Below, piece after piece: positions 32,665 to 32,868 of a DNA stretch of 54,876 nucleotides (its first letter is position 1; each line of letters begins with the position of its first letter). A program made the position numbers and the translations under genes. This DNA is from a virus (lineage: Duplodnaviria > Heunggongvirae > Uroviricota > Caudoviricetes), in the IMG/VR virus record IMGVR_UViG_3300030250_000013; one strand, 5' to 3'. The notes beneath the pieces are model-generated. The model was not told where the DNA came from. It saw only the letters and a program-made list of their open reading frames with translations, and ran no database searches.

Positions 32665-32764
32665 TCTTCTATTTATTTATGTTTTCTATGTCATCTATAA
32701 AAAGATAATAAAAAGAATAAGATAGAGAGGGGTTGGTCAAAAAATAAACATGACGAAATCTATG
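32665..32764. repeat. ~100-bp AT-rich element, copy A (paralogue at 49572-49676)
   Basis: About 88% identity by eye to 49572-49676 (shared ...ATGTTTTCTATGTCATCTATAAAAAGATAATAAAAAGAATAAGATAG...GGGTTGGT...AAACATGACGAAATCTATG). Confidence 0.7.
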
Positions 32765-32778
32765 AATCTATGATCTAC

Positions 32779-32860
32779 TAATACAGAACGTGTATTAGCT
32801 GCAACTCAAAATCATGAAACCTATGTAAAACCATGTGTAGCTAATACAGAACGTGTATTA
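32779..32860. promoter_or_regulatory. two identical palindromic operator-like sites
   Basis: TAATACA-GAACG-TGTATTA at 32779-32797 and 32842-32860 (7-bp perfect inverted arms), just upstream of promoter copy 6. Confidence 0.45.
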
Positions 32861-32868
32861 GCTATATC

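Follow-up and report, generated by a model that had tools for sequence, protein, structure and literature searches.

The stretch of DNA analysed here (the window, 54,876 nucleotides) is the complete, circularly closed genome of a siphovirus of the Sashavirus/Nonanavirus ("9NA-like") group, a phage of E. coli, and our subject is a 390-bp non-coding stretch within it, region A, which separates two divergent units. To its left the head operon (XkdF-like, scaffold and major capsid genes) begins at 32542 and is read from the minus strand; to its right a run of small genes occupies 32957-34411 on the plus strand. Region A is flanked by an SPP1-gp7-family gene plus small genes on one side and by the scaffold/capsid operon on the other, and it contains an AT-rich element, two palindromic sites (A1 and A2) and two outward-facing copies of a promoter-like repeat. 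A second copy of the element lies 17 kb away in region B, which holds further sites of the same family and adjoins the gene of a protein that we call gpR.

The unique length of the genome is 54,777 bp. Positions 1-99 are duplicated exactly at 54778-54876, and this 99-bp end duplication is a product of the circularly closed assembly and not a true terminal repeat. Over the tested stretch the genome is 94-96% identical to the E. coli phages AVIO78A, PDP46, Bas82, 536P12, PJ16 and BDX09P1. The 9NA-like phages have been described as a virulent, molecularly unstudied group with pac-directed headful packaging, 9NA itself being virulent and forming clear plaques (PMC4153490).

Palindromic sites and AT-rich elements at two loci

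Site A1 (CTAATACA-GAACG-TGTATTAG, 32778-32798) and site A2 (TAGCTAATACA-GAACG-TGTATTAGCTA, 32838-32864) share the 19-mer TAATACAGAACGTGTATTA, which is present exactly at 32779-32797 and at 32842-32860, 63 bp from start to start. An initial annotation of the genome, made from the sequence letters, had pointed to two identical copies of TAATACA-GAACG-TGTATTA at this distance, placed just upstream of a promoter copy, and both observations are borne out: only 0.04 matches to the 19-mer at up to three mismatches are expected by chance, none of 100 shuffles gave three matches, and A2 abuts the upstream part of the promoter. The inverted arms extend beyond the 7 bp originally described, reaching 8 bp at A1 and 11 bp at A2. 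The spacer between the two sites (32799-32837) is itself conserved, being homologous to the corresponding spacers of 9NA and Sasha, and carries CTATG/CATG motifs.

The fine structure of the sites was compared in 11 close relatives that are ~90% identical across region A. The arms contain only two variable positions, an A/G exchange permitted by the family consensus and a T/A exchange at the first base of the right arm of A1 (in Bas82 and c18478_21), while the 5-bp spacer inside a site reads GAACG, its reverse complement CGTTC, or GATTC/CATTC, and all four orientation combinations of the A1 and A2 spacers were seen. Because the arms are near-invariant and the spacers invert independently, symmetric recognition by a dimer through the arms is indicated; the pattern is the one to be expected if a symmetric site can invert and keep its function. 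Absence of the palindromes from relatives had been named as the finding that would speak against a binding role; instead, they are conserved.

The AT-rich element (copy A, 32665-32764; repeat family D7) recurs as copy B at 49577-49676, with 90% ungapped identity and a mean column identity of 88% in a wider alignment. The duplicate of ~100 bp, 17 kb away and ~88% identical, that had been described by eye is therefore real; its end at 49676 was correctly placed, and its start, given as 49572, lay 5 bp off. Copy B ranks first and copy A second in the whole genome for both AT content and nearest-neighbour instability, in windows of 60, 100 and 150 bp. The third most AT-rich part of the genome, 44383-44960, lies downstream of the promoter copy at 44204 and contains neither an element copy nor sites. 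Copy A consists of a T-rich left part with degenerate 9-bp TATCTATRY-like repeats, A-tracts in the middle, and ATCTATG at its right end; two tandem ATCTATG motifs occupy 32758-32772 (plus strand). This 7-mer has eight copies in the genome, seven of which fall within regions A and B.

The core of the element, with TATCTATAC-type 9-bp repeats plus A-tracts, is kept in the alignment of every 9NA-like phage examined. Copy A of the window is 94% identical to the region B element of Sasha and 89% to its own region B element, compared with 75-77% to the region A elements of Sasha and 9NA; in other lineages the A and B elements inside one genome are 74-80% identical. By these figures the A element of the window subgroup is nearer to the B-type than to the ancestral A-type elements, so that the duplication is ancient and the near-identity in the window reflects recent homogenisation. 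A sigma-70 promoter within the element was looked for by a scan and by inspection by eye; none was convincing, the weak candidates being one 9/12 match and conserved minus-strand hexamers spaced 15 bp.

The element could also be thought to encode a product, either a small RNA or a small hydrophobic peptide, a view that we consider very improbable. A 43-codon hydrophobic open reading frame (MRSMRLPIPF...IYKKIIKRIR; 32594-32725, plus strand) does run into and cross the element in the window subgroup, where Bas82 annotates it as a coding sequence (Bas82_0032), and a 29-codon version exists in region B. The frame is not conserved beyond this one subgroup, and was rejected as a candidate: no open frame with a start codon covers the region A element of 9NA, Sasha or c8904, or the region B copy of the Klebsiella phages, and the region B element of 9NA has only a 29-codon frame with a TTG start. 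A structured RNA was rejected likewise, since the folding z-scores are unremarkable (-0.8 for copy A, -2.1 to -2.5 for copy B) and Rfam covariance models gave no match at the gathering score in the whole window; no terminator was found.

Region B (49297-49844) separates terS, the small terminase gene (48661-49296, minus strand; phrog_51), which reads away from it, from the gpR gene (49845-50621, plus strand; 258 residues; phrog_25538). When the genome is scanned with the family consensus TARTRCA-N5-TGYAYTA at up to two mismatches, nine sites are found, two in region A, seven in region B (49372-49785) and none elsewhere; shuffled genomes give 3.3 sites, scattered throughout. The seven further sites had been overlooked in the initial annotation, as had the ancient two-locus character of the system and the fact that the elements have the lowest stability in the genome. 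Three of the region B sites lie to the left of the element, namely TAATACA-ATGTT-AGTATTA (49372-49390), TAGTGCA-CAACA-TGCACTA (49401-49419) and, directly beside it, TAATACA-CTATA-TGCACTA (49537-49555), and four of 19 bp each lie to its right, starting at 49690, 49711, 49743 and 49767 (to 49785). An eighth, degenerate site (49798-49816) overlaps the -10 of a putative gpR promoter (TTGCAC-17 bp-TATGAT, 49785-49813, plus strand), a weak candidate with 8/12 consensus positions that was recognised by reading and is not listed by the promoter scan, and with which site sequences overlap.

The promoter-like repeat TTTAAAATAATTCTTGACGGATTACA, an A/T-rich upstream part plus a -35 hexamer, is present in ~14 copies with variable -10 regions, on the plus strand at 6942, 7006, 32865, 36762, 38534, 40756, 44204, 45974, 47588 and 48076, and on the minus strand at 91-119, 1635-1663, 11770-11798 and 32560-32588. 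The last of these (family D8, 90% identical to the reference copy) faces the head operon and combines the A/T-rich part with TTGACG. The rightward copy in region A ("copy 6", 32865-32910; D2, D3, D4), with the -35 TTGACG at 32882-32887 and the -10 TATCTT at 32905-32910, is the predicted promoter for the small genes at 32957-34411. A2 ends 4-6 bp ahead of its A/T-rich upstream part, and the centre of A2 lies ~31 bp from the -35 hexamer in the window, 25 bp from it in 9NA and 33 bp in VLCpiS10a. The homology of PJ16 and BDX09P1 to the window stops directly after this hexamer, inside a conserved ATTACA-like motif, and because it breaks there the promoter repeats look like mosaic recombination joints.

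Two further observations concern the surroundings of these promoters. By eye, a conserved CCCGTGG(T/G)T motif is seen shortly upstream of terS (49338-49347, minus strand, ACCCGTGGGT) and of gpR (49816-49823, ACCCGTGG), as well as, in 9NA, Sasha and VLCpiS10a (L006/L007/L008), ~35 bp upstream of the gene that opens the head operon; an extended -10 or a 5'-leader element could include it. The second gene of the rightward operon (33356-33610) matches Phage_VG64 and a PHROG resembling recombination directionality factors, which is unexpected for a virulent phage, and it is shorter than, and unlike, the Bas82 gene at the equivalent position.

Site classes and the putative recognition domain of gpR

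Regions A and B were gathered from GenBank phages (9NA, Sasha, Sergei, Bas82, PDP46, VLCpiS10a and others) as well as from IMG/VR and Logan contigs. The layout is identical in every relative collected: in region A two sites, spaced 60-70 bp, come after the element, and the second of them abuts the upstream part of the promoter, and in region B 5-11 sites are arranged around the element and extend to the start of the gpR gene. As a two-locus feature, the AT-rich element with its sites is ancient and common to the whole phage cluster. The sequence of the sites is lineage-specific and falls into at least six classes. The window and, in region B, Sasha have TARTRCA-N5-TGYAYTA; 9NA and contig c8904_47 have (AGTTTCR)NATAACAC-N3-5-GTGTTA; the Klebsiella phages have GTTTCAGCTTACCAG...; and the contigs P0003, P0009 and P0010 have AATACTAT-S-ATAGTATT, TTCATATAACCAAATTGGTT and TACCAGATGTGTA, respectively. 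As 9NA and Sasha share the host Salmonella enterica yet differ in class, the factor that reads the sites is encoded by the phage and is not a host protein. Resemblances of the sites to DnaA boxes or to IHF sites were considered by eye only, were inconsistent across classes and were dropped.

The coupling between the two loci was scored by a site-based scan, as counting of shared 9-mers proved too noisy. Region A sites find matches in region B at 6-9 places in the window class, at 6-10 in the 9NA class and at 3-4 in the Klebsiella class, against 0-1 places when these three main classes are matched to region B of another class. That the sites agree over a distance of 17 kb and despite many mosaic joints argues that both loci must fit one protein. 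In the window subgroup both A sites have become gpR-matching, and the spacer between them has stayed homologous to the ancestral region A of 9NA and Sasha.

Homologues of gpR (Sasha gp81, 9NA gp84) are highly restricted in distribution. The gene is single-copy in each of the 23 9NA-like records carrying it and is present in no other of 50,697 phage records, and ~8 true homologue clusters were found among 1.84 billion representative proteins. There is no Pfam, NCBIfam or PDB sequence match to gpR, and phrog_25538 is a family of unknown function. The alignment reveals a variable N-terminal domain of ~60 residues, a conserved middle part of ~110 residues, an (EAPVARV)n linker whose unit is repeated 4-13 times and, at the C-terminal end, a conserved tail of ~40 residues. 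The linker is encoded by a 21-bp tandem repeat (50400-50504) that varies from ~4 to 13 copies among relatives and that Sasha annotates over 282 bp; a related Ala/Pro-rich repeat is seen inside the gene of a gp2.5-like SSB (a protein that binds single-stranded DNA) at 9616-9704. The structural model of gpR has an XRE/Cro-type helix-turn-helix fold, and its fold matches are XRE helix-turn-helix regulators; a single-sequence AlphaFold prediction (predicted local distance difference test score, pLDDT, 43) was too poor and was not used. For an internal duplication of the helix-turn-helix, a profile comparison with hhalign returned a probability of 9%.

The site classes track the N-terminal ~60-70 residues of gpR. 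Identity in this domain is 97-100% for members of one site class and 28-40% for members of different classes, and different site sequences within the same region B layout are found in 9NA, the Klebsiella phages, c8904_47 and the P0003, P0009 and P0010 contigs. One metagenomic contig (L034, Logan SRR27902278_53966, protein P0003) differs from the window only at its positions 57-465, corresponding to the sites, which are of another class, plus the first 70 gpR codons, and its flanks are 93% and 97% identical to the window; it is, as the alignment reads, a natural cassette swap of sites plus recognition domain. The product of 49845-50621 had been listed among the candidate binders at the outset, and it is with its N-terminal domain that the site class changes. 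We infer that dimers formed by the N-terminal helix-turn-helix of gpR bind the sites, which we consider likely.

Two other phage proteins would each give the sites a different meaning. The initial annotation had proposed sites for a dimeric regulator, that is operators or iterons, or else a parS-like centromere for a ParB-like protein. The first part of this proposal is supported by the conserved arms, the spacer flips, the co-variation of gpR and its XRE/Cro fold; the second is not supported. A gene for a ParB-like protein is present (54049-54816; phrog_1033) and arrayed palindromes do resemble partition sites, yet the window and 9NA, whose sites are unrelated, have versions of this protein that are 90% identical and differ at a single position in residues 121-180; the protein is 98-99% identical in the Sasha group and ~69% in the Klebsiella phages, with no class-like break. 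The ParB-like protein was ruled out as the binder for this lack of co-variation, and as partition is not needed by a virulent, headful-packaging phage (PMC4153490), a centromere array is highly unlikely.

That the small terminase reads the sites, which would then form a pac region, is scarcely more probable. The pac site of SPP1 likewise consists of repeated boxes plus bent DNA. Region B lies directly upstream of terS, and 9NA uses pac-directed headful packaging (PMC4153490). The terminase is conserved across site classes, however, being 84-87% identical overall, and 89-90% over residues 1-70, when the window is compared with 9NA, the Klebsiella phages and c8904_47, which have no common site sequence, and TerS was ruled out as the binder as well.

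A possible replication origin or operator

We suggest, tentatively and at somewhat less than an even chance, that a replication-origin-type locus is present in two copies, of which region A, set also against a promoter, is the smaller. Region B would be the primary copy beside the gene of the binding protein, and region A a secondary copy inside the head-gene cluster. Bound beside the AT-rich element, gpR might help to open it or might recruit the phage primase-helicase; both origin function and helicase recruitment are speculative. The elements are placed between divergent units, and we infer that negative supercoiling accumulates at both of them, where, generated by the divergent promoters, it could assist melting. 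By covering the upstream part of the rightward promoter at region A and its own promoter at region B, gpR would at the same time be autoregulated.

This reading is favoured because the repeat clusters flank the most meltable DNA of the genome and the gene of the co-varying protein adjoins them, because the sites cover the putative gpR promoter and the two-locus layout parallels that of SPP1, and because the phage encodes a primase-helicase of 784 residues, an SSB and a polymerase but no recognisable initiator, none of the O, Rep or DnaD type having been recognised among the phage proteins scanned. Three features expected of an iteron origin are present: clustered repeats of 17-25 bp (seven sites in region B, two in region A), an adjoining, easily unwound AT-rich element at each locus (ranking first and second), and an adjacent gene, that of gpR, whose specificity co-varies with the repeats by sequence comparison. 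In region B the sites stand on both sides of the element, and the cumulative GC skew has its minimum at region A.

Several points weigh against an origin and should be kept in mind. The GC-skew minimum is confounded by the switch of gene orientation at region A, where moreover no more than two sites are present, both to the same side of the element. gpR was not found to belong to any of the initiator families (O, Rep, DnaD, replisome organiser), and XRE-type helix-turn-helix proteins are typically transcription regulators and not initiators. The co-variation of gpR with the region B sites could partly reflect their physical linkage. The literature searched holds no binding, replication or transcription data for 9NA-like phages. 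Finally, Sasha, Sergei and Solent combine gpR and B sites of the window type with A sites (ACCAGATATGTA) of another class; these A sites (in Sasha L007 1580-1672) have no match in region B of their own genomes (in Sasha L004/L005), and there is one gpR gene per genome. As these three phages demonstrate, matching of the A sites to gpR is not obligatory.

The A sites of these phages look like an orphan pair left by recombination, and they resemble the classes of the P0010 contig (L036) and of the Klebsiella phages. No stand-alone paralogue of the gpR helix-turn-helix that would explain them was found in the window or in the loci of relatives that were fetched. Elsewhere, the BFVD model S4TRC8 (Salmonella phage SP069, 69 residues) superposes on one gpR domain with a root-mean-square deviation of 0.8 Å over 55 residues at 29% identity, and may on this structural comparison be such a paralogue.

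The main rival, which we regard as quite possible, is that the sites are purely transcriptional operators and that gpR is a Cro-, C-protein- or Aca-like autoregulator. It would repress its own promoter at region B and repress or modulate the promoter of the rightward small genes at region A, terS and the head genes, as divergent late operons, might also be controlled, and the element would be promoter-upstream or bent DNA, or would carry promoters itself. The fold model of gpR is of the XRE/Cro helix-turn-helix kind found in repressor-operator modules. Site sequences in region B lie over the putative weak gpR promoter, and A2 meets only the upstream part of its promoter, which it abuts in every class. 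Both loci are divergent promoter regions heading late genes, the cassette of operators plus recognition domain acts like the lambdoid immunity regions, and the mismatch of A sites tolerated by Sasha suits a dispensable regulatory input.

What this rival accounts for less readily is the arrangement of the sites. Relatives that share the sites have different genes downstream of the region A promoter (PJ16 and BDX09P1 diverge just after the -35), so that the sites are not tied to particular regulated genes, and the variable distance from A2 to the -35 (25, 31 or 33 bp) means that there is no fixed activator geometry. In region B, simple autoregulation would not need as many as 7-11 sites distributed across 300-450 bp to the left and right of a conserved 100-bp element, only one of the ~14 promoters of the family carries sites, and the element is without a convincing sigma-70 promoter. 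A context of lysogeny or immunity is likewise absent, no lysogeny genes being seen among the proteins scanned. Since iteron-binding initiators commonly autoregulate, the origin and operator readings are not exclusive.

A concrete candidate can now be named for the central DNA-binding protein of the 9NA-like phages, with a recognition code in six specificity classes and two genomic targets, which makes origin mapping and regulation in this group directly testable. The natural exchange of sites together with the recognition domain, and the spacers that flip independently between near-identical genomes, provide clean examples of how a protein-DNA specificity module evolves. As these phages serve in biocontrol, it may also be of practical interest that a cloned region A or B might titrate gpR and thereby hamper them.

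Relation to known systems

The system resembles either an iteron/AT-rich origin with a type-specific initiator or an operator/repressor module, and gpR, with its XRE-type fold, cannot be shown to belong to the protein family of either. No account of the sites or of the role of gpR was found in the literature searched, though the main genomics study of the group may already describe the repeats. The closest parallel in layout is SPP1, whose oriL and oriR each consist of direct repeats plus an AT-rich unwinding element and are bound by gp38 (PMC6316719). In both phages there are two such loci (~13 kb apart in SPP1, 17 kb here), one at the gene of the binding protein and the other (oriR in SPP1) interrupting the head genes, with a gp7-family gene and small accessory genes to one side and the scaffold/capsid genes to the other. 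The differences are that oriL is contained in gene 38, region B being placed upstream of gpR; that gp38 is a protein of the replisome-organiser type, to which gpR shows no sequence match, modelling instead as an XRE-type helix-turn-helix protein; and that origin activity was shown in vitro for SPP1 and is proposed for the present loci.

The lambda origin has 19-bp repeats with internal dyad symmetry beside an AT-rich region, and the N-terminal domain of O is type-specific and co-varies with the iterons, the C-terminal part being kept for contacts with partners. The gpR cassette swap mirrors this type specificity of O and iterons. Unlike the present arrangement, lambda has four iterons inside the O gene, to whose family gpR has no match, and a P/DnaB system in place of the primase/SF3-type helicase.

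Cro/CI, the C proteins of restriction-modification systems and Aca share with gpR the XRE/Cro fold, palindromic sites with 7-bp arms and a short spacer, the overlap with the regulator's own promoter and the exchangeable module of operator plus recognition domain. In contrast to them, gpR, at 258 residues, also comprises another conserved domain, a linker of repeats and a C-terminal tail, its 7-11 sites flank an AT-rich block, a second locus lies 17 kb away and the phage is virulent.

In the Staphylococcus aureus pathogenicity islands (SaPIs), an AT-rich stretch of ~80 bp lies between sets of island-specific iterons that correspond to the cognate initiator in specificity, and in P4 two separated iteron loci, ori and crr, are required. 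There the iteron binder is the primase-helicase itself, whereas here the co-varying protein is, as far as sequences tell, a separate helix-turn-helix protein. A further scenario, which we consider rather unlikely, is a novel type of origin, in which the two-domain, XRE-type gpR with its exchangeable recognition domain would mark two AT-rich, partly palindromic unwinding elements and recruit the primase/SF3-type helicase through its conserved C-terminal tail. In such a system, and as in SPP1, region A might be an origin that fires late, or else it might block forks and thereby set off the synthesis of concatemers, and the proposed recruitment of the helicase by gpR would follow a logic similar to that of papillomavirus E2 and E1.
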